This document shows, piece by piece, positions 3,052-19,799 of a stretch of 64,000 bases of DNA. A program made the position numbers and the translations under genes. Source of the stretch: a virus; IMG/VR virus record IMGVR_UViG_3300005758_000578, positions 1 to 64,000 of that record, one strand, 5' to 3'. The stretch's first letter is position 1, and each line of letters opens with the position of its first letter. Under the pieces are notes generated by a model that saw only the letters and a program-made list of their open reading frames with translations, searched no databases and was not told where the DNA came from.

Positions 3052-3295
3052 AGATTTAGAATTTAAACCTATGATTCACCAAGAAGGTATCCGTGCTGTT
3101 GCAAATTTTGATAACGGTTATGGTGCTAGTATTGTTAAATGTGAAACAAGTTATGGGAACAAAAGAGGTTTGTATGAATTAGCAGTATTGTATGATAATA
3201 TGATAACTTATGATACAGAAATTACAGATGATGTACTAGGTTATCTTACACCAGAAGATGTAACAAAACTGCTTGAAAGAATAGAAAAGTTATAA
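3041..3295 (+). CDS. Conserved phage hypothetical protein
   Basis: FDNGYGASIV..SYG..GLYELAVL..DVLGYLT pattern seen in many phages. Confidence 0.75.
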   Translation: MTFEDLEFKPMIHQEGIRAVANFDNGYGASIVKCETSYGNKRGLYELAVLYDNMITYDTEITDDVLGYLTPEDVTKLLERIEKL

Positions 3296-3297
3296 TT

Positions 3298-3555
3298 ATG
3301 AATGAAATAGAGGTGTTTATTAACCGGCTAAAGAAGATAGGTATTGAATTAGAGTTATCTGGTAATGTACCCTGGATTTATTTAGATAAAGTTAATGGTA
3401 ACAGAGTTAAGCGGGAAGATTACAATGCTAATCATGGTTATACTATTGCTTGGTATCCTGTAAGACTAGGAGATAAACCATACCTAGATTCAGACCTTAA
3501 ACGTACTTTTCAGGTAATTAGAAAATATAAAGACAATGAGCAACAATCAAATTGA
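3298..3555 (+). CDS. Hypothetical protein
   Basis: 85-aa ORF (GNVPWIYLDKVNG); ends within an MSNN junction repeat. Confidence 0.7.
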   Translation: MNEIEVFINRLKKIGIELELSGNVPWIYLDKVNGNRVKREDYNANHGYTIAWYPVRLGDKPYLDSDLKRTFQVIRKYKDNEQQSN

Positions 3556-3772
3556 AAAAATAAAACAATTCTTATATAGTGAAATATGTGAGCGTAGAGA
3601 GTATTCCGCATCTCGTATGTGTGAAGAAGTCCTTAAATTTATACAAAACAGTGAAAAACTAGATAAGTTTTTAGGAGGTGCATATGGAGAAATCTATCAG
3701 TCTGATGCACTTGCAAGACTTAAAGAAAGAGTTCAGCAACGTAAAGAATTTAAAAAAAGAAAAGATGGGTAA
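3536..3772 (+). CDS. Hypothetical protein (MSNN-start family)
   Basis: 78-aa ORF starting at the junction repeat. Confidence 0.6.
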   Translation: MSNNQIEKIKQFLYSEICERREYSASRMCEEVLKFIQNSEKLDKFLGGAYGEIYQSDALARLKERVQQRKEFKKRKDG

Positions 3773-4442
3773 AATAGACAAAAACAGCAGATTCTATAAG
3801 CCTCCTACCCTACAAGAGCGCTTAGAAGACATTAAGTATTTCTTTCTGTTTTGGAGAGGAAGAAAGAAGGGTATGATTTTTACCCGTAACATTACATTAG
3901 ATGATTTCCGCTATATCTTCTTTCCCAAAGGATTTGAGAAGTATGGTTACTTAGGAACACATCTATGGCATGAAGAAGGTGATTACTTTAATGCTCTTTA
4001 TCCCTTAGTACTTGCTATGGATCATGAAGCTAAGCCTAAATTCTGCCCTAGGTGGTTTTTACGCTTTCTACATGTATTTGGTTGTGATAGATCTATTGTA
4101 AGAGTACGTAGCTGGACCTTGCATAACTTACTTAGAAAACTAACTAAAGGTATTGCCTTTGTAGATTGGAAAACTAAGTGGCAAAGTTATGACCTACGTA
4201 TCTCTATAAATGCTCCTAAGCACTTACAAGACCTAGCAGAGGATATAGAACATGGATTTTACTCTAGAGGTAAACAGAAAGAACTTGCTTACTTTATTAA
4301 GCAAGCAGATCCAGAAGCCTTTATTATCTGGGGTAGTGTAGAAAGATTAGAGAAACAGTTAGAAGAAATAATGGCAAAAAAGAAACAAGAAGAAGCATTA
4401 GACTTTCTAACTAAACAAGCTCAAGAATTAAACTTATATTAA
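3765..4442 (+). CDS. Hypothetical protein
   Basis: Long ORF; ATG 3765 overlaps the end of the previous gene and is the likely start. Confidence 0.65.
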   Translation: MGKIDKNSRFYKPPTLQERLEDIKYFFLFWRGRKKGMIFTRNITLDDFRYIFFPKGFEKYGYLGTHLWHEEGDYFNALYPLVLAMDHEAKPKFCPRWFLRFLHVFGCDRSIVRVRSWTLHNLLRKLTKGIAFVDWKTKWQSYDLRISINAPKHLQDLAEDIEHGFYSRGKQKELAYFIKQADPEAFIIWGSVERLEKQLEEIMAKKKQEEALDFLTKQAQELNLY

Positions 4443-4447
4443 AAACT

Positions 4448-4576
4448 ATGAAAAGAAGAGTATTATTCTTAATTGTGCTTTGTGGATGTTCTCAAAATCA
4501 TAAGACCCACAATCTAAAAGTAACTGATACTACTATCTACTACGATAGTATGACATTAATTAATGAAAGTCCATAA
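4448..4576 (+). CDS. Small putative lipoprotein (not in the ORF track)
   Basis: MKRRVLFLIVLCGC: basic N-region, hydrophobic core and lipobox-like Cys; fills the intergenic gap. Confidence 0.5.
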   Translation: MKRRVLFLIVLCGCSQNHKTHNLKVTDTTIYYDSMTLINESP

Positions 4577-4579
4577 ATT

Positions 4580-4837
4580 ATGAGCAATAATAAACAGATT
4601 ATGAAAAAACTATTATTAGCAACATTACTTATCGGAATGGTAAGTAGTTGCCAAGAAGCAACAGTCACAAGAAAAACAACTACAATTGTAACTCAGGATG
4701 GTGGCAAACCCTTAAAACTAATTGTTATAGATGGTTGTGAGTACTTTGAATACAGTTCCGGTCATAGATACAGTTTGTGCCACAAAGGAAATTGTAAGAA
4801 TCCTATTCACCCTGAAAACAAAGGAGGTAACAAATGA
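4580..4837 (+). CDS. Putative lipoprotein
   Basis: MKKLLLATLLIGMVSSC signal (alternative start 4601); IDGCEY..HKGNCKNPIH motif. Confidence 0.7.
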   Translation: MSNNKQIMKKLLLATLLIGMVSSCQEATVTRKTTTIVTQDGGKPLKLIVIDGCEYFEYSSGHRYSLCHKGNCKNPIHPENKGGNK

Positions 4838-5097
4838 AACTATACACAGAATTTGAAGTAAAATTTGCTATGGATACGGCAAGGTGTCAACAAGATTTAA
4901 CTTTTGATGAAGTTTTACAACAATTAACCCCCATCGAACTACCAAGTGATGAGGAGATAGATGCTCATGTAGAGGGGGATTTTCTAAATTCTACTGGAGT
5001 ACATAAATACTCTGAAGAAGCACAATTACTGATGAAAGCAATGTGTAAAGCAGGTGCTTTGTGGATGCGTGATAAAATACAAGGAGGTAATAAATGA
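4834..5097 (+). CDS. Small phage protein (KLYTE..PIELPSDEEI..WMRDKIQGGNK family)
   Basis: ATGA-coupled ORF ending in the GGNK junction. Confidence 0.7.
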   Translation: MKLYTEFEVKFAMDTARCQQDLTFDEVLQQLTPIELPSDEEIDAHVEGDFLNSTGVHKYSEEAQLLMKAMCKAGALWMRDKIQGGNK

Positions 5098-5282
5098 AAG
5101 ATAATAAACCACTAGTAGTAGGACTTTTAACAATGGTAGCAATATATCTGCTTGTTTCATTTGCAGTATGGGATTTAAATGCTAAAAACTGGGAAATTGT
5201 AGTAAGAGTAATGTATGCATTTTGGAGTCCAATTTTTTCAGTATTAGTATATTCTGGATGTAAAATAGGAAGCAAACAATGA
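5094..5282 (+). CDS. Small two-TM membrane protein
   Basis: Two hydrophobic segments; coupled on both sides. Confidence 0.65.
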   Translation: MKDNKPLVVGLLTMVAIYLLVSFAVWDLNAKNWEIVVRVMYAFWSPIFSVLVYSGCKIGSKQ

Positions 5283-5563
5283 GCAACAATAAACAAAGTA
5301 GCGTGGAGTGGTTGATTGCAGAAATTCAAAGAAGAGTTTCAATAATTCAATCAGAACCACAAACAATGGCAAGGGAATTAATGATAGACAATTTATCTGT
5401 TGATTTAGAACAAGCCAAAGCAATGCACAAGGAGGAATGTATTAAATACTATGTAGATGCTGTTGATTATGGAGATATGGGTAAACATATTAGAGAATCA
5501 TTGATTCAAATCGCAGAAAAAATTTACAACAAAACATTTGGAGGTAACAATGAGCAAAAATAA
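5279..5563 (+). CDS. MSNNKQ-EQAKAMH family paralog 1
   Basis: SSVEWL / EQAKAMHKEE / YNKTFGG blocks. Confidence 0.75.
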   Translation: MSNNKQSSVEWLIAEIQRRVSIIQSEPQTMARELMIDNLSVDLEQAKAMHKEECIKYYVDAVDYGDMGKHIRESLIQIAEKIYNKTFGGNNEQK

Positions 5564-5768
5564 ACAAACAACACCGATTTTTACTACGTCAGAATTTACA
5601 ACAGCAACTATTCCTCAACCAAAAAAGATAGTAGGATGGTATTGCTTAGGCAGTAAAAGCAGAGTAAACTGTACCGCATTTGGAACGTACAGTAAGCCTA
5701 ACTTTATTAAGAGATTCTTTATGAGAACCTTATTAGATTTTTATTGGGTTAAAGAAACACAACAATGA
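5550..5768 (+). CDS. Hypothetical protein (MSKNKQ start)
   Basis: ATG lies within the junction repeat; KPNFIKRFFMRTLLDFYWV. Confidence 0.6.
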   Translation: MSKNKQTTPIFTTSEFTTATIPQPKKIVGWYCLGSKSRVNCTAFGTYSKPNFIKRFFMRTLLDFYWVKETQQ

Positions 5769-5974
5769 GCAACAATAAACAACAAACGGCAGTGGAATAT
5801 TTAGTTGAACAATTATTTCCAAAAGCATTAAGCGCAGAGCAATATTATCATATTGAACAAGCCAAAGCAATGCATAAGGTAGAAATAGTCAATGCAGTTG
5901 ATGGGTTTCCTATTCACACAAGACATATGAATGGGGAAGAGTACTACAACGAAACATTTGGAGGAAACAAATGA
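5765..5974 (+). CDS. MSNNKQ-EQAKAMH family paralog 2
   Basis: TAVEYL / EQAKAMHK / YYNETFGGNK blocks. Confidence 0.75.
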   Translation: MSNNKQQTAVEYLVEQLFPKALSAEQYYHIEQAKAMHKVEIVNAVDGFPIHTRHMNGEEYYNETFGGNK

Positions 5975-6174
5975 GCAACAATAAACCACGTAAAAATCAA
6001 GCCGTTACAGATTATTGGTTTGACAAAAGCAGAACAATTAGAAAGTCTATCATCCTGTACAAACAACAGGATGGTATGGCTACCCCAGTTATGTATTTGA
6101 CCAAGCCAAGATGGCTAAGTGATGAAGAATTTATGGAGTTCTTTAGTAAACTAGAAATAAGAGTAAAACCATAA
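5971..6174 (+). CDS. Hypothetical protein (MSNNK start)
   Basis: Junction-repeat start followed by an unrelated body. Confidence 0.6.
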   Translation: MSNNKPRKNQAVTDYWFDKSRTIRKSIILYKQQDGMATPVMYLTKPRWLSDEEFMEFFSKLEIRVKP

Positions 6175-6181
6175 GCAAACT

Positions 6182-6415
6182 ATGATTTATCAAGAAGCAA
6201 TAGAAAAAGCACTTACAGTAAAATGGAAAGTTGGTACCTGTCAAGAAGGTGAAAAATGTTGGTGCAGAACTATAGAACCAGCAGAACCAATCCTATTTGA
6301 AGATGGTAATATCTTATCAGAGTACTACATTATTAGAAGTGGTGAAGTAATTAAAGAAACAGTTGAGCATTTAGTTAAACTACATAACCAATACTTAGAC
6401 AATGAGCAACAATAA
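6182..6415 (+). CDS. Hypothetical protein
   Basis: CQEGEKCWC motif; ends DNEQQ* in the junction repeat. Confidence 0.65.
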   Translation: MIYQEAIEKALTVKWKVGTCQEGEKCWCRTIEPAEPILFEDGNILSEYYIIRSGEVIKETVEHLVKLHNQYLDNEQQ

Positions 6416-6608
6416 ACAAAGTAGCGTGGATGTTTTAATTAGTGGTTTATTAGAATACATACATGAAGGACATCATCCAGAAGTTTTAGAATTGTATGAA
6501 CAAGCCAAAGCAATGCACAAGGAGGAATGCAAAGAAAGTTATTACGAGAGTTTACTGAGTAACTTTCAAACATTTGAACATTACTACAACGAAACATTTG
6601 GAGAATAA
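6402..6608 (+). CDS. MSNNKQ-EQAKAMH family paralog 3
   Basis: SSVDVL / EQAKAMHKEEC / YYNETFGE blocks. Confidence 0.75.
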   Translation: MSNNKQSSVDVLISGLLEYIHEGHHPEVLELYEQAKAMHKEECKESYYESLLSNFQTFEHYYNETFGE

Positions 6609-6611
6609 TTT

Positions 6612-6827
6612 ATGGACAAATTTGAATATAAATACCTGTTTATAACTTTAAGTAGACCAGAATTAAGCAAAAAACTAAACGAATTAGGCTCTAAGAGTTG
6701 GGATATTATATCTGCACCTAGAATACTTTATGAAGTTAGTGAGTTTGATAGTCAGGCTAACATTCTATTTAGATGGGAAATCTTTATGAAGCGGAAAATA
6801 CAAGAAGATAACAATGAGCAACAATAG
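6612..6827 (+). CDS. DUF4177-like small protein
   Basis: KFEYK..LNELGSKSWDII..FMKR pattern. Confidence 0.55.
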   Translation: MDKFEYKYLFITLSRPELSKKLNELGSKSWDIISAPRILYEVSEFDSQANILFRWEIFMKRKIQEDNNEQQ

Positions 6828-7041
6828 TGTAGATTTACTAATTAAAGAAGTTAAATCTAAAGAATGGCCGGATTTATTTATTTGGCACAAAGAAGCTATT
6901 TTTAATAGAGCTAAAGCAATGCACAGAAATGAACAAGAACAACTATTGTTTAAGTACTTTGAGTGGCATAAGCGTAAAGGCTATGAAAAGCACGAGTTAG
7001 ATCACTTTACAGAGTTTTATAAAGAAACTTATGAAAGCTAG
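6814..7041 (+). CDS. MSNN-AKAMH family paralog 4 (diverged)
   Basis: SVDLL / RAKAMH / FYKETY blocks. Confidence 0.65.
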   Translation: MSNNSVDLLIKEVKSKEWPDLFIWHKEAIFNRAKAMHRNEQEQLLFKYFEWHKRKGYEKHELDHFTEFYKETYES

Positions 7042-7360
7042 AGAATACACATCTAAAACCTTACAAGAACTTATAGATGAGGTAACAGTTGGAGAGTTGG
7101 AGGCTACTAGTAAGAGTATGGACCCTATGACTCCTAAATCAGAAGCTTATGATTTAGTTTTAGGCTTTTATTACCGATTACCCAACAATGGCAGACTTAA
7201 AACCGGGATTAACAGTTGTGAGTCTCGGTTTAAGGAAGCTGTAATGTGTGCTATACTTACTGTAAATAAAATTATTAGTGCTTTACATGCTCATACCTGG
7301 CAAAATAGACATGAAATAGATCACTATACAGAAATGTTAAAAGAAATAGAAAAACTATGA
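7031..7360 (+). CDS. TPK..CA..EIEKL family protein
   Basis: C-terminal half is similar to the next ORF. Confidence 0.65.
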   Translation: MKAREYTSKTLQELIDEVTVGELEATSKSMDPMTPKSEAYDLVLGFYYRLPNNGRLKTGINSCESRFKEAVMCAILTVNKIISALHAHTWQNRHEIDHYTEMLKEIEKL

Positions 7361-7551
7361 GCACTCCTAAAGAAAAAGCAAAAGAACTAGTTGATAAATT
7401 CAGTGTAGTAGGTTTGCAACAAAGAAACGAAGGAATTGCGTGTGCATTGATTGCGGTTGATGAGATAATAGAATTATTACCAGAAATTGCTTTTGGTATG
7501 AGAGTAATTGATTATTACCAACAAGTAAAAGAAGAAATAGAAAAGCTATGA
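7357..7551 (+). CDS. TPKEKAKELVDKF..CALIAVDEII..EIEKL family protein
   Basis: Small protein pattern common in aquatic Bacteroidota phages. Confidence 0.7.
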   Translation: MSTPKEKAKELVDKFSVVGLQQRNEGIACALIAVDEIIELLPEIAFGMRVIDYYQQVKEEIEKL

Positions 7552-7940
7552 CACAAGAAGAACTTAAAAAAATAGCAGAAGAGTCTTGGGAAGGATGTGA
7601 TAGCTGTACAGAAACAGATAAACAAATGTACATCAACGGATTTGTTAAAGCAGCTTTCCGTTATGGTAATTTTGCCCGATTTAGTACTTCTGATGACTCT
7701 CCCTACTGTAAAGTATGCTCTGCATGTGGAGTAGAAGGATGTTGTTCTCCTATGGCCTGTAAGCAAAGCCCTGATGGAGACTACTGTCAATCTTATTTAA
7801 ACGACTTAAAGATGGGCTATATTATGAACCAATTCTTTGAGAACGAGATAATGGATCAAATGCCCCTTGACTTAAAAGAAAAGTATAATGCAGAGTGGGA
7901 CAAAGCCTACGATCAAATTTATAATAATAAAGAATCATGA
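7548..7940 (+). CDS. Cys-rich hypothetical protein
   Basis: YCKVCSACGVEGCCSPMAC. Confidence 0.65.
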   Translation: MTQEELKKIAEESWEGCDSCTETDKQMYINGFVKAAFRYGNFARFSTSDDSPYCKVCSACGVEGCCSPMACKQSPDGDYCQSYLNDLKMGYIMNQFFENEIMDQMPLDLKEKYNAEWDKAYDQIYNNKES

Positions 7941-8290
7941 GCAAGATTAAACAAGACAAAATACCTATGACATTAACGGAAGATAATGTTTTAGAAGTTC
8001 TTGGTTACAAGTATAAGTTGGTTAGAGAAAGAGATAATCTACTTAACTTTGGTGATAAAGTTGGATGGATTGAATGGAAACCAGATGGTACTTTTGGAAA
8101 ACTACATGATAAACCTGCTATTGGCCTATCTTGTATTCTAGACCCACATAGATTTAGTTTTACTTGGTTAACAACTTCTATCACAGAAATCATAAAAGAA
8201 GAAGACGATTACGTTAAGTTTAAAACTTCAAATAGTACATACGAACTATGGCACGCACAACAAGAGAACAAAAACAGCAAAAAGCAGTGA
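7937..8290 (+). CDS. Hypothetical protein
   Basis: FTWLTT..FKTSNSTYEL phage motif. Confidence 0.7.
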   Translation: MSKIKQDKIPMTLTEDNVLEVLGYKYKLVRERDNLLNFGDKVGWIEWKPDGTFGKLHDKPAIGLSCILDPHRFSFTWLTTSITEIIKEEDDYVKFKTSNSTYELWHAQQENKNSKKQ

Positions 8291-10775: not shown

Positions 10776-11875
10776 CAAAAAGAGATCAAGTACAACAGAA
10801 TGCATTAATAGAAGTAGTTAAATACAAAAGAAGTAGTGCTGTAATGAGTATGGGTTCCGGTAAAACAAAACTGGGCCTAATGCACATGCAGTATTATCTA
10901 CATGATCAAAGTAGATATCTAGTAGTAGCACCTAAAAGATCCATCTTTCAGTCTTGGATTGATGACTGTAAGAAGTTTGATTGTGAGGAACTACTAGAAC
11001 ATATCACTTTTACAACATATTTATCTTTAAGTAAAAATAAAACAGATTATGACTGTGTATATCTAGATGAGATGCATAGTCTATTAGATAGTCACTTAGA
11101 GTGGCTTGACAGTTACCGGGGAAGAATACTAGGTCTAACAGGCACACCGCCTAAACGTGGTGCCAAAGCTGAAATAGTATATAAGTATTGTCCAGTTAAG
11201 TTTACATATACTGTAGATACCGCAATTGATGATAAAATTCTTAATGACTATGAAATCCATGTGCACACTATGCCATTGGATACTAGAAATAATATTAAGA
11301 AGGAATCTAAGAAGAGTGGTGTTTGGTATACATCTGAACATAAACAATACAGTTTCTGGAATAATAAACTACAGAATGCCACTAGTGATAAAGAAGTAAG
11401 ATTTTTAAGAATCATGCGGATGAAAACACTAATGACATTACCAAGTAAAGAGAAGTATGCTATGCAACTTATGAATAGCAGCCCTAATAAATGTATAGTG
11501 TTTGCTAATACAAAAGAACAGGCAGATAAACTTTGTAGGTATAGTTATTATTCCGGGAATAAGAAATCTGAGGACAATCTTCAGAAGTTCAAAGATGGTA
11601 CTATTGATAGATTAAGCTGCGTACTACAACTTAATGAAGGTATTAATATCCCTAATCTTAAAGAGGGTATTATTCTTCATAGTTATAGTAATGAGCGTAA
11701 GTCTAATCAGCGTATTGGTAGATTATTAAGACTAAATCCAGATGATAAGTCTATAGTGCACATACTATGTTATAGTAATACTATAGATGAAACATGGGTA
11801 AAAGAAGCTTTATCAGATTTAGATCAGAGTAAGATTACCTGGAAGAACATCAATCAGTTAGAATTAGATTTATGA
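10772..11875 (+). CDS. Superfamily 2 DExH helicase
   Basis: GSGKT, DEMH, GLTGTP, EGINIP and QRIGRLLR motifs. Confidence 0.9.
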   Translation: MTKRDQVQQNALIEVVKYKRSSAVMSMGSGKTKLGLMHMQYYLHDQSRYLVVAPKRSIFQSWIDDCKKFDCEELLEHITFTTYLSLSKNKTDYDCVYLDEMHSLLDSHLEWLDSYRGRILGLTGTPPKRGAKAEIVYKYCPVKFTYTVDTAIDDKILNDYEIHVHTMPLDTRNNIKKESKKSGVWYTSEHKQYSFWNNKLQNATSDKEVRFLRIMRMKTLMTLPSKEKYAMQLMNSSPNKCIVFANTKEQADKLCRYSYYSGNKKSEDNLQKFKDGTIDRLSCVLQLNEGINIPNLKEGIILHSYSNERKSNQRIGRLLRLNPDDKSIVHILCYSNTIDETWVKEALSDLDQSKITWKNINQLELDL

Positions 11876-12261
11876 AAGTATTCACAACAACATTAGTTAA
11901 GAAAGATGGTAAGTTAGATTTTAATAATGAAGCCATTAAGAAAGTATATAACCAATTTGTTGGAGTAGTACCGGACGGTTTTACTGTTAATGTAATCTTT
12001 GAACTAAATGGTCCTAAAGCTACACTAGCTCAAATCTCTAAAGCACATGCTGCTTGTAGAGAAATTGCAGTGTTTACCGGCCATAACTTTGAAGATGTAA
12101 AGTTATTAGTAAAAGAGAAAGCAGGATTGATTATAAAAAATAATAGTGATGGGGAAACCACCACTATTATAAAATCTTTTGGAGACTGCTCTAAAGAAGA
12201 GATGAGTCAAGTAATACAAGTTACTGAAGAAATGTGTGCCAGTATGGGTATCGGCTGTTAA
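11872..12261 (+). CDS. NinB/Orf-like hypothetical protein
   Basis: AQ..H...REIA..TG..KSF.DCSKEEMS pattern. Confidence 0.45.
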   Translation: MKVFTTTLVKKDGKLDFNNEAIKKVYNQFVGVVPDGFTVNVIFELNGPKATLAQISKAHAACREIAVFTGHNFEDVKLLVKEKAGLIIKNNSDGETTTIIKSFGDCSKEEMSQVIQVTEEMCASMGIGC

Positions 12262-12612: not shown

Positions 12613-13335
12613 ATGAGTAACAAACAGCAACTTAATATCTCTGATATACAAAAAAACTTAACTGATAAACTAATAGATACTCAATGGTATGGTGCACTTA
12701 ATCACTTTATTACTAAGAGTGAGTTTACTGAAATCATAGAGAAATTAGTATATGAAGTAGAGCAAGGAAAAAGATTTGTACCTAAAGTTAAAAATACTTT
12801 AAATGCATTTAAGGAATGTGATCTTAAAGATTTAAAAGTTGTAGTAATTGGTCAAGATCCTTATCCTTGGTTATACAAAAATCATCCGGACGGTACTGTA
12901 GCAGATGGATTAGCTTTTAGTTGTGGTAATAGTATGAAAATACAACCATCACTAGAATATATCTATAATGCTATGGGTAAAGATGTAGATGATAGAGATC
13001 CTGATTTAAAATATCTAGCAAACCAGGGTGTATTACTATTAAATAGTGCACTCACTGTAGAGGTAAATAAACCGGGAACTCACTATACTATCTGGAAGCC
13101 ATTTATAAACATAGTAATTGATACAATTAATTACCATAAATCAAATATTGTTTATATATTGCTTGGTAAAGTAGCACAGCAGTTTGAAGATATGATATCT
13201 GATGAAAACCTTATCCTAAAAGCATCACATCCAGCAAGTGCTGGATATAATGGTGGGGTTTGGAATTGTGATGATGTCTTCAATAAAGCTAATCAGTATC
13301 TACAAGAAAAAGATAAAACTATAATACAATGGTAA
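12613..13335 (+). CDS. ung: Uracil-DNA glycosylase, family 1
   Basis: GQDPY, GLAFS, GVLLLNSALTV and HPAS motifs. Confidence 0.92.
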   Translation: MSNKQQLNISDIQKNLTDKLIDTQWYGALNHFITKSEFTEIIEKLVYEVEQGKRFVPKVKNTLNAFKECDLKDLKVVVIGQDPYPWLYKNHPDGTVADGLAFSCGNSMKIQPSLEYIYNAMGKDVDDRDPDLKYLANQGVLLLNSALTVEVNKPGTHYTIWKPFINIVIDTINYHKSNIVYILLGKVAQQFEDMISDENLILKASHPASAGYNGGVWNCDDVFNKANQYLQEKDKTIIQW

Positions 13336-17034: not shown

Positions 17035-17718
17035 ATGGCATCAAGTGTATTAGTAATCGCAGAGAGTGGTGCAGGTAAAAGCACAAGTATTGCAAACCTG
17101 GACCCAAAAGAAACATTTATTATTAATGTAGCAAACAAACCCCTTCCCTTTAAAGGATGGAAGTCTAAGTACAAAGTATGGAGTAAAGAAGATCCTACAG
17201 GTAACATGTACACAAGGCCCATTGCTAAAGAAATTGAAGCATGTCTTAAGTATGTTAGTGAGAAGAGACCAGAAATCAAAAACATTGTAGTAGATGATTT
17301 CCAGTACATCTTTGCATTTGAATACTTTGAGCGTGCTGAAGAGAAAGGCTTTGATAAGTTTACTAGCATTGCCAAAAACATGGCAGCTATTGCTAAACTT
17401 CCCATTGTGTTACGTGATGACTTACATGTATTTTTCTTGACTCACGCTGAAGAATCTCAAGATTTAGAAGGCAGAAGAAAATTTAAAGCAAAAACAATTG
17501 GTAAGTTAGTAGATAACAGTTTAACTTTGGAGGGACTATTCTCTATAGTTTTATTTGGTAAAGTAAAGAAAGATAAGGATGGTAACATCAAGTATGTATT
17601 TGAGACCCAAAACAATGGTGAGAACACATGTAAGTCACCAGCAGGTATGTTTGATTCCTTTGAGATTTCCAATGATTTAGAATTTGTAAAACAAGCAATA
17701 ATTAACTACGAAAATTAA
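17035..17718 (+). CDS. AAA_24 / Sak4-like ATPase
   Basis: AESGAGKSTS, VVDDFQY and CKSPAGMF motifs. Confidence 0.85.
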   Translation: MASSVLVIAESGAGKSTSIANLDPKETFIINVANKPLPFKGWKSKYKVWSKEDPTGNMYTRPIAKEIEACLKYVSEKRPEIKNIVVDDFQYIFAFEYFERAEEKGFDKFTSIAKNMAAIAKLPIVLRDDLHVFFLTHAEESQDLEGRRKFKAKTIGKLVDNSLTLEGLFSIVLFGKVKKDKDGNIKYVFETQNNGENTCKSPAGMFDSFEISNDLEFVKQAIINYEN

Positions 17719-18465: not shown

Positions 18466-19434
18466 ATGATTAGTACCAAGATCCTAATTCCGGATATAAA
18501 GTCAGTACCTATAGCATGGGTATTTGAACATTATTGTAGATTAGATCAGAAGTTAACTGGTCAAGACATTAAGATTAAATCTGTCTTTAATCCTAGTGAG
18601 AGAACTCCTAGTATGTGTATTTACTTTAAGAAAGATAAAGATAAATACTATTACAAAGATTTCTCTACGGATAAAGGTGGTGATTGTATTGATTTAGTAC
18701 AGCAGATGCTTGGTATAGATACCCGCTTAAATACAATGCATAAGATTGTAAGAGATTACAATGAATTTGTATTGCATAATAATGGCGGATATGACTTACA
18801 AGTATTTAAGCAGTACAATAAATACAAAGTAGATAGATATGAAATACGGCAGTGGAATACATTAGATAAAAGTTACTGGAGTAAATACGGAATAGGTTCT
18901 AAAATGCTAGAGTACTATAATGTAAAACCTCTAAGTACTTATACCATGTTTAAAGAAGAGGACGGTATATATAAAGTCTTAAATATTGAGGGCTCTAATA
19001 TATATGGTTACTTCAGGAAAGATGGTACTCTAATTAAAATCTATCAGCCTAAAGTACAAAAGAAGAAATTCTTAAAAGTAAAAGATTACGTACAGGGTAG
19101 TGAGCAGCTTAGTGGAAATACTACATTGTTTGTTGTCTCCTCTCTTAAAGATGGTATGTGTTTGAAGAAAATATATCCAGCTGCAGATTTTGTAGCACCG
19201 GATTCTGAAAACAGTATGATTAAGAAGGAGTATTTAGATAGTATTCAAAGCAACTATAAGACATGCTATATACTATTTGACAATGATGAAGCCGGTAATA
19301 GATCTACTGCAAAGTATTGTAATCAATTTAATTATCTGAAACCTTTATATTTGCACTTATCAAAAGACATCTCTGATTCTGTAAAAGATCACGGATATCT
19401 TAAGGTAAAAGAATATTTAGATAATAGTTTATGA
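18466..19434 (+). CDS. DNA primase (crAss-like, TOPRIM)
   Basis: ERTPSM..YKDFS N-terminal domain; SSLKDGM, APDSEN, LFDNDEAG and KDISD motifs. Confidence 0.85.
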   Translation: MISTKILIPDIKSVPIAWVFEHYCRLDQKLTGQDIKIKSVFNPSERTPSMCIYFKKDKDKYYYKDFSTDKGGDCIDLVQQMLGIDTRLNTMHKIVRDYNEFVLHNNGGYDLQVFKQYNKYKVDRYEIRQWNTLDKSYWSKYGIGSKMLEYYNVKPLSTYTMFKEEDGIYKVLNIEGSNIYGYFRKDGTLIKIYQPKVQKKKFLKVKDYVQGSEQLSGNTTLFVVSSLKDGMCLKKIYPAADFVAPDSENSMIKKEYLDSIQSNYKTCYILFDNDEAGNRSTAKYCNQFNYLKPLYLHLSKDISDSVKDHGYLKVKEYLDNSL

Positions 19435-19799
19435 CAACATTTATCATACCAGGTAATACACCCTCTAGTAAAAATGGTAGAGTGTGGACAGGCAGATACA
19501 GTATAGCAAGCGCAGCCACAAGAAAGTGGAAACTTGCAACTGATGAACACTGGAAAGCACAAGCAAAACAGTTTAGAAAAGAATCTAAAGGTCTTAGTAA
19601 ACCATTGTATGTAGAGTTTAAGTTCTATAGAAAAAGCAGACATAAGTTTGACTTGATTAATATAGCACAAGCTGTACAAGATGCAATGGTAAACTATGAT
19701 TGGATAGATGATGATAATGCTGATGAACTTGTTCCAGTATTTGCCACTTACGTGTATGATAATAAAAACCCAAGAGTAGAAATTAAAATTCTAAAGTAA
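19431..19799 (+). CDS. rusA: RusA-like Holliday junction resolvase
   Basis: PSSKN, FDLIN...VQD, IDDDN and PRVEI motifs. Confidence 0.8.
   Translation: MTTFIIPGNTPSSKNGRVWTGRYSIASAATRKWKLATDEHWKAQAKQFRKESKGLSKPLYVEFKFYRKSRHKFDLINIAQAVQDAMVNYDWIDDDNADELVPVFATYVYDNKNPRVEIKILK

Follow-up and report, generated by a model that had tools for sequence, protein, structure and literature searches.

A repeated start/stop joint in a viral small-gene array looks like a recombination site for accessory genes without an integrase

The variable small-gene array of an uncultured phage, IMG/VR virus record IMGVR_UViG_3300005758_000578, is punctuated by a short repeat. Judged by comparison with other viral sequences, this repeat appears to be a recombination joint at which small accessory genes are shuffled with no need of an integrase. 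The window analysed was the first 64,000 nt of this 112,048-bp record. We consider it probable that the repeat is a portable start/stop joint, which provides a translation start free of structure in a genome poor in SD sequences, probably that of a phage with a Bacteroidota host, and acts as a preferred site of short-homology crossover.

Anatomy of the joint and its array

The preliminary description had placed eight ORF starts on the motif, and this count held. Allowing up to three mismatches, pattern matching found ATGAGCAACAATAAACA eight times, always on the + strand and each time at an ORF ATG, between 3536 and 7937; dinucleotide shuffles gave a mean of 0.65 matches and reached eight in 0/100. 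The copies (mismatches in brackets) are 3536 (3), 4580 (1), 5279 (0), 5550 (1), 5765 (0), 5971 (1), 6402 (0) and 7937 (2). No copy with two mismatches or fewer was found outside 4580-7953 in the entire record. A ninth start, 6814, has its first 13 nt in common with the motif. The core of the joint is ~22 nt long, AACA-ATGA[GC][CA]AACAATAAACAA, with frequent extensions, the left one ending in TTTGGAGGTAACA and the right one being CAAACGGCAGTGGA. The array cassettes all run in one direction, as follows.

3298..3555, + strand: singleton ORF, 85 aa; last codons (NEQQSN*) supplied by the second frame of the following gene's leader
3536..3772, + strand: anchor gene, N-terminal module; start MSNNQ resembles the leader, with 3 mismatches; homology to relatives from 3560, 24 nt past the ATG
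3765..4442, + strand: anchor gene core, 225 aa; separated from 3536-3772 by a 5-nt deletion versus relatives
4580..4837, + strand: lipoprotein gene, leader MSNNKQI before its own ATG (4601); ends GGNK* on the GGAGGTAACAAATGA joint
4834..5097, + strand: MKLYTE-family cassette, without leader here; ends GGNK* on GGAGGTAATAAATGA
5094..5282, + strand: membrane-protein cassette, degenerate leader MKDNKP; its stop is the TGA within the next leader's ATGA
5279..5563, + strand: family A paralog 1, exact leader; ends FGGNNEQK*, read through the next leader
5550..5768, + strand: cluster-14 gene, first ~20 codons replaced by leader MSKNKQTT; homology to relatives from 5611
5765..5974, + strand: family A paralog 2, exact leader; 5761-5884 98% identical to locus L008
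5971..6174, + strand: singleton body after leader MSNNKPRK; preceded by the 3' constant block TACTACAACGAAACATTTGGAGGAAACAA
6182..6415, + strand: singleton ORF; ends NEQQ* within the next leader
6402..6608, + strand: family A paralog 3, exact leader match
6612..6827, + strand: cluster-83 gene, without leader here; ends NEQQ* within the next leader
6814..7041, + strand: weak member of family A (MSNNSVDLL); its leader breaks off after 13 nt
7031..7551, + strand: pair of paralogs of cluster 4, each ending EIEKL* at another junction repeat, GAAATAGAAAA(A/G)CTATGA
7937..8290, + strand: conserved gene, leader-like start ATGAGCAAGATTAAACA (MSKIKQ); present in 39 loci

The start at 7937 was considered as a recent leader copy and rejected, being the conserved start of its gene in those loci; it is also the right boundary of a 573-bp indel relative to L025 (overlap ATGAGCA, 7 nt).

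The joint sets an ATG, with A at -3, in an A-rich, unstructured context and carries TGA at +1 and TAA at +11 in the other two frames, so that the upstream ORF would be terminated and the downstream ORF initiated whatever either is. The stop supplied to the upstream ORF is ATGA or the TAA at +11. The dual-frame reading claimed earlier was borne out: upstream ORFs end in the second frame of the leader at 3555 (NEQQSN*), 5563 (NEQK*), 6415 and 6827 (both NEQQ*), and ATGA-type start/stop overlaps occur at 5279, 5765, 5971 and 7937. Likewise, MSNNKQI at 4580 does precede a complete lipoprotein signal; the orthologs in L009 and L013 begin at the internal ATG (MKKLLL...), and the leader ends in AATAAACAGATT, which corresponds to the native upstream AATAAAACAGATT of L009.

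Conservation and spread of the leader

With the anchor gene core (3765..4442) as query, 60 related loci were retrieved. The leader was found among these and in at least 118 further IMG/VR stretches, from lake phages both related and unrelated, in up to 8-11 copies per contig. Its 238 distinct proteins fell into 42 body families (10 residues trimmed before clustering): family A, with 154 of the 238, and 41 others. One complete phage of 62 kb has only 6, and another of 180 kb only 12, of 117 ORFs in common with the present phage, yet both carry the leader and the cassette families. The leader occurs in two variants, MSNNKQS and MTNNKQQTAVE, both with fixed rare codons, and the conserved unit spans -4..+20, or to +32 in family A. 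Among 56 starts picked by peptide alone (M[ST]NNK), Ser was encoded by AGC 25 times, AGT twice and TCN never; Thr by ACA 27 times, ACC twice and ACT never; the first Asn by AAC in 55 and AAT in one; and the second by AAT in 56/56. Genome-wide, AGC accounts for 7% of Ser, ACT for 51% of Thr and AAC for 28% of Asn codons. That the leader codons are fixed despite this usage indicates conservation at the nucleotide level.

Orthologous bodies were seen both with and without the leader. The lipoprotein appears in five N-terminal states, and clusters 83, 4, 154 and 14 and the MKLYTE family vary too. Elsewhere, MKLYTE-family homologs have MSNNKQ(S/I) fused before the same ATG and cluster-4 homologs have MTNNK leaders; the L022 homolog of the membrane-protein cassette has MTNNKQQT, and the cluster-83 ortholog in L013 has MSNNKQQ fused at codon 2. 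At 228 distinct junctions the upstream ORF ended in ATGA (96), in the in-leader TAA (~84) or before the ATG (31), or read through in frame (~17). The same cluster-14 end leads through the leader into six different bodies, and the anchor gene end into five.

Part of the repeat in the window is plain paralogy, which narrows two earlier claims, that of a cassette joint and that of unrelated bodies. ORFs 5279, 5765 and 6402 are mutually paralogous (blastp E 1e-9 to 1e-11), 6814 is a weak paralog of these (E 0.004-0.05), and the motif is their shared N-terminus (weakly so in 6814); the unrelated bodies in the window are therefore limited to 3536, 4580, 5550 and 5971. It is very unlikely, though, that the whole repeat is just a conserved N-terminus kept within one family of tandem duplicates that diverge fast, with the 'unrelated' bodies as unrecognised members. 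Such an origin would account for 3-4 of the window copies, for the share of family A among the leader proteins and for the leader running on into helix 1 of that family. However, lipoproteins, membrane proteins and mostly leader-less families carry the leader in some genomes only, fused at different codons, and family A bodies are 24-46% identical among paralogs while their leader is identical at synonymous sites. On the sequences compared, the orthologs with and without leader already contradict this account.

Nor does a peptide tag seem at all probable, that is, MSNNKQ/MTNNKQQ as an N-terminal targeting or processing signal of cassette proteins. Such a tag would fit the finding that many small, unrelated proteins begin with a short peptide that is conserved and disordered, and it would resemble the capsid-targeting sequence of T4 internal proteins reportedly described by Mullaney and Black in 1996. 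That sequence too is a short conserved leader at the N-terminus of small proteins from a polymorphic locus, proteins that otherwise have nothing in common, and it serves as a peptide signal that is removed by cleavage in the prohead. The joint, in contrast, is conserved at the codon level and not only as a peptide, it precedes Sec/lipoprotein signals, transmembrane helices and soluble proteins alike, and orthologs apparently function without it.

Breakpoints and indels among relatives

Gene content and order around the array are not fixed, in line with the shuffling first proposed, and differ in nearly all 60 related loci. The comparison of breakpoints with the repeat, set beforehand, used loci picked via the neighbouring gene rather than the motif, blocks of ≥90% identity and ends within -15..+40 of a start. 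Homology blocks ended at 38/60 leader starts (63%) versus 187/686 other small-gene starts (27%; OR 4.6, Fisher 3e-8, a p-value that overstates independence because the loci are phylogenetically related), and they also clustered at ordinary gene starts. Blocks shared by the 6612..6827 region with L038, L013 and L019 stop at 6826, and the 98% identity of 5761-5884 to L008 covers only the leader to the central constant block. Between ≥90%-identical relatives, the leader lay at a boundary of 18/60 indels, against 5.3 expected under random placement and 9.9 at random ORF starts, an enrichment of only ~2-fold over the latter. In clean cassette indels the leader flanks the cassette as a 16-30-nt direct repeat:

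L079:441-889 versus L172/L128: 23-nt overlap
L044 versus L026: 28-nt overlap
L013 versus L127: 30-nt overlap
L139 versus L183: 16-nt overlap

The claim of a recombination joint is thus supported in part, by the breakpoint excess and these leader-flanked indels, whereas in ~2/3 of the indels separating close relatives neither boundary carries a leader; these show other junction repeats or none and in many cases 0-5 nt of overlap. The anchor gene is followed by ~30 different neighbours, many of them lacking a leader, and this junction varies also in leader-less relatives. A reciprocal quartet (A-B, C-D, A-D, C-B) was found neither at the leader nor at the central block of family A. Leader-to-body joints sit at variable positions, which indicates that many events were illegitimate, or driven by microhomology, on one side or both.

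These comparative data cannot separate crossover caused by homology from illegitimate events followed by survival of working joints. In the second case the joint would be a translation module only, a site well suited to starting or re-initiating translation of overlapping ORFs that lack promoters, in a host blind to SD, with illegitimate recombination striking anywhere, selection keeping the joints that work and homology not directing the crossover. The unstructured A-rich start region with A at -3 (PMC6847099) and the roughly equal use of stops in both other frames agree with this, as do the variable leader-to-body joints, in which the body's own ATG is often kept, the block ends gathered at ordinary gene starts and the leader-less majority of indels. 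We regard it as possible but unlikely as the full account, since elsewhere in the 112-kb genome the module is used by no gene, structural ones included, the clean indels bear the overlap signature of direct-repeat recombination, and rare codons fixed over ~20 nt in 42 families need copying, not convergence. It is compatible with the portable crossover joint that we favour, not exclusive of it. All sequences are short-read metagenome assemblies, able to form chimeras at repeats, and joint plus flanking constant blocks reach ~50 nt. That the mosaic joints are assembler chimeras at a 20-50-nt repeat in co-occurring phages is nonetheless hardly credible, as the same joints occur in independent samples (L020-L024, L031-L033, L047/48/50, L172 with L128), and graph mis-joins cannot produce leaders fused to bodies at unique sequences, or internal leaders that are in frame.

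Candidate mechanism, host and related systems

Leader start regions are the least structured (-1.29 versus -2.53 kcal/mol, p 1e-5). An SD-like 4-mer precedes only 14/120 genes, which points to an SD-blind host and, together with three Bacteroidota MAG bins, suggests that the host is probably a member of the Bacteroidota; the translational argument for the joint depends on this inferred host. In Flavobacterium johnsoniae, A at -3 is a positive determinant (PMC6847099). The Bacteroidota-type -7 motif TAnnTTTG, which may not be the promoter type that this phage uses early, was absent from the + strand between 1097 and 7408. In a genome with so few SD-like starts, the joint would suit a tightly packed array that is probably promoterless and polycistronic.

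Recombination genes of the phage include:

17035..17718, + strand: Sak4-like single-strand annealing protein, candidate driver (PHROG 2872, E 1.5e-65; PF13479)
19431..19799, + strand: RusA-type Holliday junction resolvase (PF05866, E 1.3e-8)

A weak NinB/Orf-like match is also present. The array had been called integrase-free, and tyrosine and serine recombinase profiles (integrase, resolvase; PF00589, PF00239) indeed had no match in the 112-kb record; of the Sak4-like ATPase and SSB named as possible drivers, the former is encoded and the latter was not confirmed. SSAPs recombine short, diverged sequences (PMC5499656). The joint probably derives from the N-terminal tail of the abundant small three-helix proteins of family A, and its left extension from their C-terminal tail; in the structure model of the family, leader residues 1-7 and the C-terminal tail are disordered. 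Since the same 20-30 nt recur many times in one orientation, and in co-infecting phages, short-homology recombination would cross over preferentially at the joint, through strand annealing or a switch of template and plausibly with help from the Sak4-like protein. In the direction in which we infer events to have run, leader-to-leader exchange would delete, duplicate or swap whole cassettes, and new bodies would be captured behind the leader where its A-rich sequence shares microhomology with the starts of other genes.

The closest known system is shuffling at the PeSL (promoter-early stem-loop) cassettes of T4-type phages (Arbiol et al. 2010, PMC2839356; Comeau et al. 2014, PMC4122927). Both are short conserved motifs that recur, always pointing the same way, among the small non-essential ORFs of hypervariable regions, indels and replacements between close relatives end in both (here not as the sole breakpoint type), and the mechanism proposed for both is integrase-free homologous recombination between motif copies. 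However, PeSLs are intergenic and comprise a sigma70-like promoter and a terminator stem-loop, whereas the joint lies inside coding sequence, spans stop and start and encodes protein tails. A PeSL-type promoter and stem-loop are absent from it: genes overlap (ATGA or 14 nt), there is no TAnnTTTG and the fold is that of the leader starts given above. Moreover, mini-circles have been demonstrated for PeSLs, while the joint is known from assembled sequences alone, its hosts are probably Bacteroidota, and it crosses unrelated phage lineages. T4 accessory genes are amplified and deleted by recombination between short repeats (Srikant et al. 2022, PMC9391042), there through fortuitous 2-10 bp minihomologies and here at a dedicated conserved module of 20-30 nt.

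The joint is set apart from lambdoid linker or boundary sequences by its copy number per contig, its breakpoint excess and its leader-flanked indels. In the modular theory of phage evolution (Susskind and Botstein), short conserved gene-boundary sequences were the proposed exchange sites between unrelated modules; those of lambdoid phages are few and their role is disputed. Integrons share with this array the one-orientation run of small ORFs of unrelated functions (promoterless in integrons, and probably so here), a repeated site bounding each, and presence or absence of whole cassettes. They differ in their integrase, matched by neither profile here, and in that the joint, a direct repeat rich in A, has hardly any predicted structure and no attC-like inverted repeat, lies inside ORFs and supplies start and stop. 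A bolder reading, which we put forward as doubtful, is that the joint is a dedicated exchange element, by which leader-tagged promoterless ORFan cassettes circulate as a common gene pool among unrelated freshwater Bacteroidota phages, perhaps as leader-to-leader circles; it would then do the work of an integron, with phage annealing proteins in place of the integrase.

The GGAGG said to precede the starts often was found, as GGAGG(T/A)AA(C/T)A(A), upstream of 4834, 5094, 5550 and 5971, of which only the last two are leader starts. Genome-wide, the only other start bearing it is 3684, called inside the anchor gene's reading frame. A perfect GGAGG lies 5-6 nt ahead of one third of leaders, in a genome otherwise avoiding SD. 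Linked to the bolder reading is the equally doubtful possibility that this GGAGG routes the early cassettes to a special ribosome population, for example of bS21-free ribosomes, which in Flavobacterium reportedly do read SD (PMC9976891, PMC13000453).

A start/stop joint in the small-gene array

The array lies in a 112,048-bp IMG/VR virus record (33% G+C, estimated to be 94% complete), of which the window makes up the first 64 kb and which encodes PolB, a DnaB-like helicase, a primase and an SF2 helicase. No close cultured phage was identified (best PolB identity ≤36%), the array DNA gave nothing useful against 50,697 cultured phage records (one 79-nt match), and no tRNAs were found in the genome. 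Around 20 tightly packed small ORFs occupy 3.3–8.3 kb on the + strand, and neither Pfam nor PHROGs assigned a function to these cassettes. The motif ATGAGCAACAATAAACA matched eight times at ≤3 mismatches, against 0.65 expected, a count reached in 0 of 100 shuffles. Each copy is an ORF start. The motif was absent from the rest of the genome, which spoke against this leader being a generally optimal start, and that reading was dropped.

Motif-bearing ORF starts (+ strand) and the stop of the upstream gene
3536, motif copy; N-E-Q-Q/K-stop in the second frame, two codons later (3555)
4580, motif copy; lipoprotein gene
5279, motif copy; TGA of ATGA
5550, motif copy; N-E-Q-Q/K-stop in the second frame (5563)
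5765, motif copy; TGA of ATGA
5971, motif copy; TGA of ATGA
6402, motif copy; N-E-Q-Q/K-stop in the second frame (6415)
6814, ninth start, first 13 nt in common with the motif; N-E-Q-Q/K-stop in the second frame (6827)
7937, motif copy; TGA of ATGA

The block GGAGG(T/A)AA(C/T)A(A), which encodes G-G-N-(K), stood before 4834, 5094, 5550 and 5971. The preliminary description of the repeat, with its ORF starts, dual-frame stops and GGAGG block, was therefore accurate. Among the matches listed, 228 distinct leader junctions were classified by upstream stop position: the stop lay in ATGA at 96/228, at the in-leader TAA or close to it (+5 to +23) at ~84/228 and ahead of the ATG at 31/228, whilst in-frame run-through at ~17/228 produced fused proteins with internal leaders (e.g. 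in the related loci L016 and L022). The joint is frame-independent.

Conservation covered −4 to +20, extending to ~+32 in family A, a group of small three-helix proteins. Codon use was scored at starts picked by the peptide M[ST]NNK alone, in loci not chosen by the DNA motif. Ser was AGC in 25 cases, AGT in 2 and TCN in 0; Thr was ACA in 27, ACC in 2 and ACT in 0; Asn-Asn was AAC-AAT in 55/56 starts and Lys was AAA in 56/56. Genome-wide, AGC makes up 7% of Ser, ACT 51% of Thr and AAC 28% of Asn codons. Given that family A bodies share only 24–46% identity, these fixed codons indicate that the leader is either selected as DNA/RNA or continually copied. A reading of the leader as a peptide signal was ranked low, and a literature search on MSNNKQ, MTNNKQ and MSNNK found no relevant paper. 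Despite its 7% share, AGC was also the commonest second codon genome-wide (14/120 genes), and ATGAGC may also be preferred at starts outside the array, e.g. at 12613 (MSNKQQ).

SD-like 4-mers were found at 14/120 genes, compared with 6% of random 15-mers. Bacteroidota ribosomes disregard the SD and prefer starts that are unstructured and carry A at −3 (PMC6847099), and the scarcity of SD-like starts fits a Bacteroidota host. Leader starts have A at −3 and showed less structure than all other starts (−1.29 vs −2.53 kcal/mol, p 1e-5; random 50-mers, −5.23). The cassettes look promoterless and coupling-dependent, because no Bacteroidota-type −7 motif was found on the + strand between 1097 and 7408. 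Upstream of the array, this strand has a single full TTTG-N17-21-TAnnTTTG, at 1071–1103, which is a candidate for the promoter of the entire block.

Starts with GGAGG number five in the genome, and every one of them is inside the array (3684–5971). GGAGG occurred within 20 nt ahead of the ATG at 33% of leader starts vs 3% of other ORF starts (junctions in loci L008–L189 included), with a spacing at leader starts of mostly 5–6 nt and sometimes 9 nt. With an SD-blind host ribosome, this would not be expected; the array GGAGG might represent Gly-Gly tail codons only, or be a signal for a special ribosome state. A second junction repeat, GAAATAGAAAA(A/G)CTATGA, encoding EIEKL* plus the next ATG, ends three genes (7340–7360, 7531–7551 and 3275–3295).

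Spread of the leader and the bodies behind it

Sixty related loci were retrieved from IMG/VR with a 225-aa neighbour gene (3765–4442, hereafter the anchor; 51–98% identity). In relatives the anchor is a single ORF of 203–317 aa. In the window (3536–4442), an A run lacks 5 nt (AGAAAAG-----ATGGG; KKRKENMGKIDKN in relatives), which splits the gene into 78 aa and 225 aa; a true frameshift, slippage or an error in sequencing may lie behind this. Many of the 60 loci carried the leader (0–8 copies), on the coding strand every time and in two variants, ATGAGCAACAATAAACAAAGT... (MSNNKQS) and ATGACAAACAATAAACAACAAACGGCAGTGGA (MTNNKQQTAVE). An exact 18-mer search of IMG/VR added at least 118 further stretches, one record holding 11 distinct copies, and typical leader arrays were also present on three contigs binned in lake Bacteroidota MAGs.

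Of five leader-bearing virus records (62–233 kb), only one encoded a homolog of the window PolB (34% identity). A complete 62-kb phage with direct terminal repeats had 6/117 ORFs in common with this genome, three of the six being array cassettes, and a complete 180-kb phage had 12/117. With so few shared ORFs, the leader and cassettes are common to otherwise unrelated phages.

Among the matches listed, 238 distinct leader proteins were found, and their bodies (first 10 residues trimmed) formed at least 42 families. The earlier claim that unrelated bodies follow the repeat thus stood for at least 41 families other than family A; it failed for 5279, 5765 and 6402, which are paralogous to one another (blastp E 1e-9 to 1e-11), and for the weakly related 6814. 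A second paralog pair comprised 7031 and 7357 (E 8e-6).

Family A proteins consist of three constant blocks (the leader MSNNKQSSVEWL, EQAKAMHKEE and YYNETFGG) separated by two variable segments, V1 and V2. An AlphaFold model predicted a three-helix bundle (pLDDT 82) with residues 1–7 and the C-terminal GGN... tail disordered; the joint is thus built from the family's two floppy tails. Fold matches in the PDB were not significant, and Pfam and PHROGs gave no known family. Family A genes (5279–7041) are mosaic: a given V1 segment was combined with as many as three V2 segments, a given V2 likewise with different V1 segments, and the EQAKAMHKEE block contains 28–40-nt islands at 92–100% identity (e.g. 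window 5409–5436 = L009 5688–5715). On the basis of these mosaics and islands, the central block looks like a further crossover point.

Breakpoints at the leader

Gene maps differed on both sides of the anchor in nearly every one of the 60 loci, so gene content and order, which the preliminary description had expected to vary, are not fixed. It had also predicted that breakpoints would fall on the repeat, and four tests (flank partners, block ends, indels and direct-repeat overlaps) agreed. Behind the end of the cassette family cluster 14 (...FYWVKDT), the leader introduced any of six different bodies, among them a membrane protein (L022) and a fusion protein of 170 aa (L016); behind the anchor's end it introduced any of five. 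Left-flank classes with more than one right partner numbered 8/36 at leader junctions vs 25/321 at other small-gene junctions. In the anchor-selected loci, blocks of ≥90% identity ended within −15 to +40 of the ATG at 38/60 leader starts, compared with 187/686 other small-gene and 42/284 large-gene starts (odds ratio 4.6, Fisher 3e-8; the loci are related and the tests not fully independent). These class-based and block-end tests were used in place of pairwise flank counts (break fraction 0.93 for leader pairs vs 0.61–0.67 for others), which were dropped as inflated by paralogy and non-independence. Uniformity of the leader variant within genomes (all AGC in the window; permutation p 0.0002) was likewise dropped as evidence, half of the loci having been fetched with the AGC variant and lineage effects remaining.

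Between flanks of ≥90% identity, the leader lay at the boundary of 18/60 indels (~12/~50 after merging repeats of one event), with 5.3 expected from random placement (maximum 11 in 1000 trials) and 9.9 from random ORF starts. A two-cassette block at L079:441–889 was missing in L172 and L128; the leader overlap measured 23 nt, and the flanks were 94–100% identical. Overlaps also occurred at the indels between L044 and L026 (28 nt), L013 and L127 (30 nt), and L139 and L183 (16 nt, AGGAGGTGAACAATGA). These clean cases carry the overlap signature of direct-repeat recombination. In the window, block boundaries relative to relatives fell at 3560, 4592, 5761 and 6826, all within the leader or ≤24 nt from its ATG, and the 98% match to L008 at 5761–5884 reached from the leader no further than the central constant block.

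The lipoprotein gene (window 4580) had five N-terminal states among the loci.

N-terminal states of the lipoprotein gene
L009, L013: no leader
Window: MSNNKQI + MKKLLL
L038: MSNNKQS + MKKLIL
L019: MTNNKQQTAV + KKLLL
L020: MNNKQQTAVE + KLLL

The 3' part of the window leader, AATAAACAGATT, equals the native upstream sequence AATAAAACAGATT of L009, therefore pointing to a crossover inside shared A-rich words. Leader presence/absence was also polymorphic in clusters 83 (window 6612), 4 (7031, 7357), 154 (5094) and 14 (5550) and in the MKLYTE family (4834). Orthologous genes with and without the leader ruled out the reading of all leader genes as one divergent family.

An orphan leader (ATGACAAACAATAAACAACTAAAAGAAAATGAAACAAAC... 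at L037:10681; also in L034, just upstream of 10337) opens a 13-codon ORF only, out of frame with the cluster 14 gene behind it, and looks like the scar of a past joint. In L126 (232,874 bp), a leader-containing block at 267–1623 is tandemly duplicated with a period of ~950 bp and has 120–186-nt overlaps with five other contigs; the duplication stems from true amplification or else from assembly.

Proposed recombination route and rival explanations

The array had been proposed to work without an integrase, and the genome indeed encodes no tyrosine or serine recombinase. No SSB was identified in the genome. Candidate recombination genes are:

17035–17718, Sak4-like annealing protein (PHROG E 1.5e-65; PF13479)
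19431–19799, RusA
11872–12261, NinB/Orf-like protein (weak match)

SSAPs, Sak4 included, anneal DNA that is short and diverged (PMC5928155, PMC5499656), and in T4 accessory genes are amplified and deleted through short homologies (PMC9391042). In the reading that we consider the most likely, and reasonably probable, a portable start/stop joint doubles as the preferred site of short-homology crossover in a cassette array that works without an integrase. The ~22-nt module unites an initiation codon, stop codons in the two remaining frames and homology for recombination.

Turnover of small accessory genes in phages, which are often anti-defence or host-takeover genes, is usually ascribed to rare illegitimate recombination followed by selection. 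The main rival explanation keeps the translational role of the joint and attributes the pattern to these two processes; we regard it as rather unlikely. Against the preferred reading, ~2/3 of indels had the leader at neither end, the site after the anchor was variable in leader-free relatives too, and no reciprocal recombinant quartets were found at the leader or the family A central block. Other indel junctions comprised the 20-nt EIEKL*-ATGA repeat, a 7-nt ATGAGCA (window 7363/7937 vs L025) and many with 0–5 nt of overlap. The EIEKL*-ATGA repeat forms a 20-nt direct repeat at a 171–174-bp indel (L010 and L184 vs L025). All sequences are metagenome assemblies; an assembly-artefact reading was ranked low because identical joints were found again in independent samples and leader fusions of unique sequence exist, which cannot be graph chimeras.

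The closest known system to the preferred reading, a joint that doubles as a crossover site, is PeSL-mediated modular shuffling in T4-type phages (PMC2839356, PMC4122927). Unlike PeSLs, the joint is coding, apparently promoterless, works with any upstream frame and is common to several lineages, where it occurs on at least 42 unrelated bodies in phages with almost no other genes in common. This would offer a concrete, testable route by which phages of an abundant, poorly studied host group could exchange cassettes quickly and irrespective of frame. The leader also provides a sequence tag for mining their accessory-gene pool in metagenomes, and the joint a model from nature for placing promoterless ORFs one behind another where ribosomes are SD-independent. 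Finally, a free-standing endonuclease-like gene (1953–2822, 289 aa; weak PHROG matches, one annotated as HNH endonuclease) lies 0.7 kb upstream of the array, and breaks made by its product nearby could stimulate recombination.
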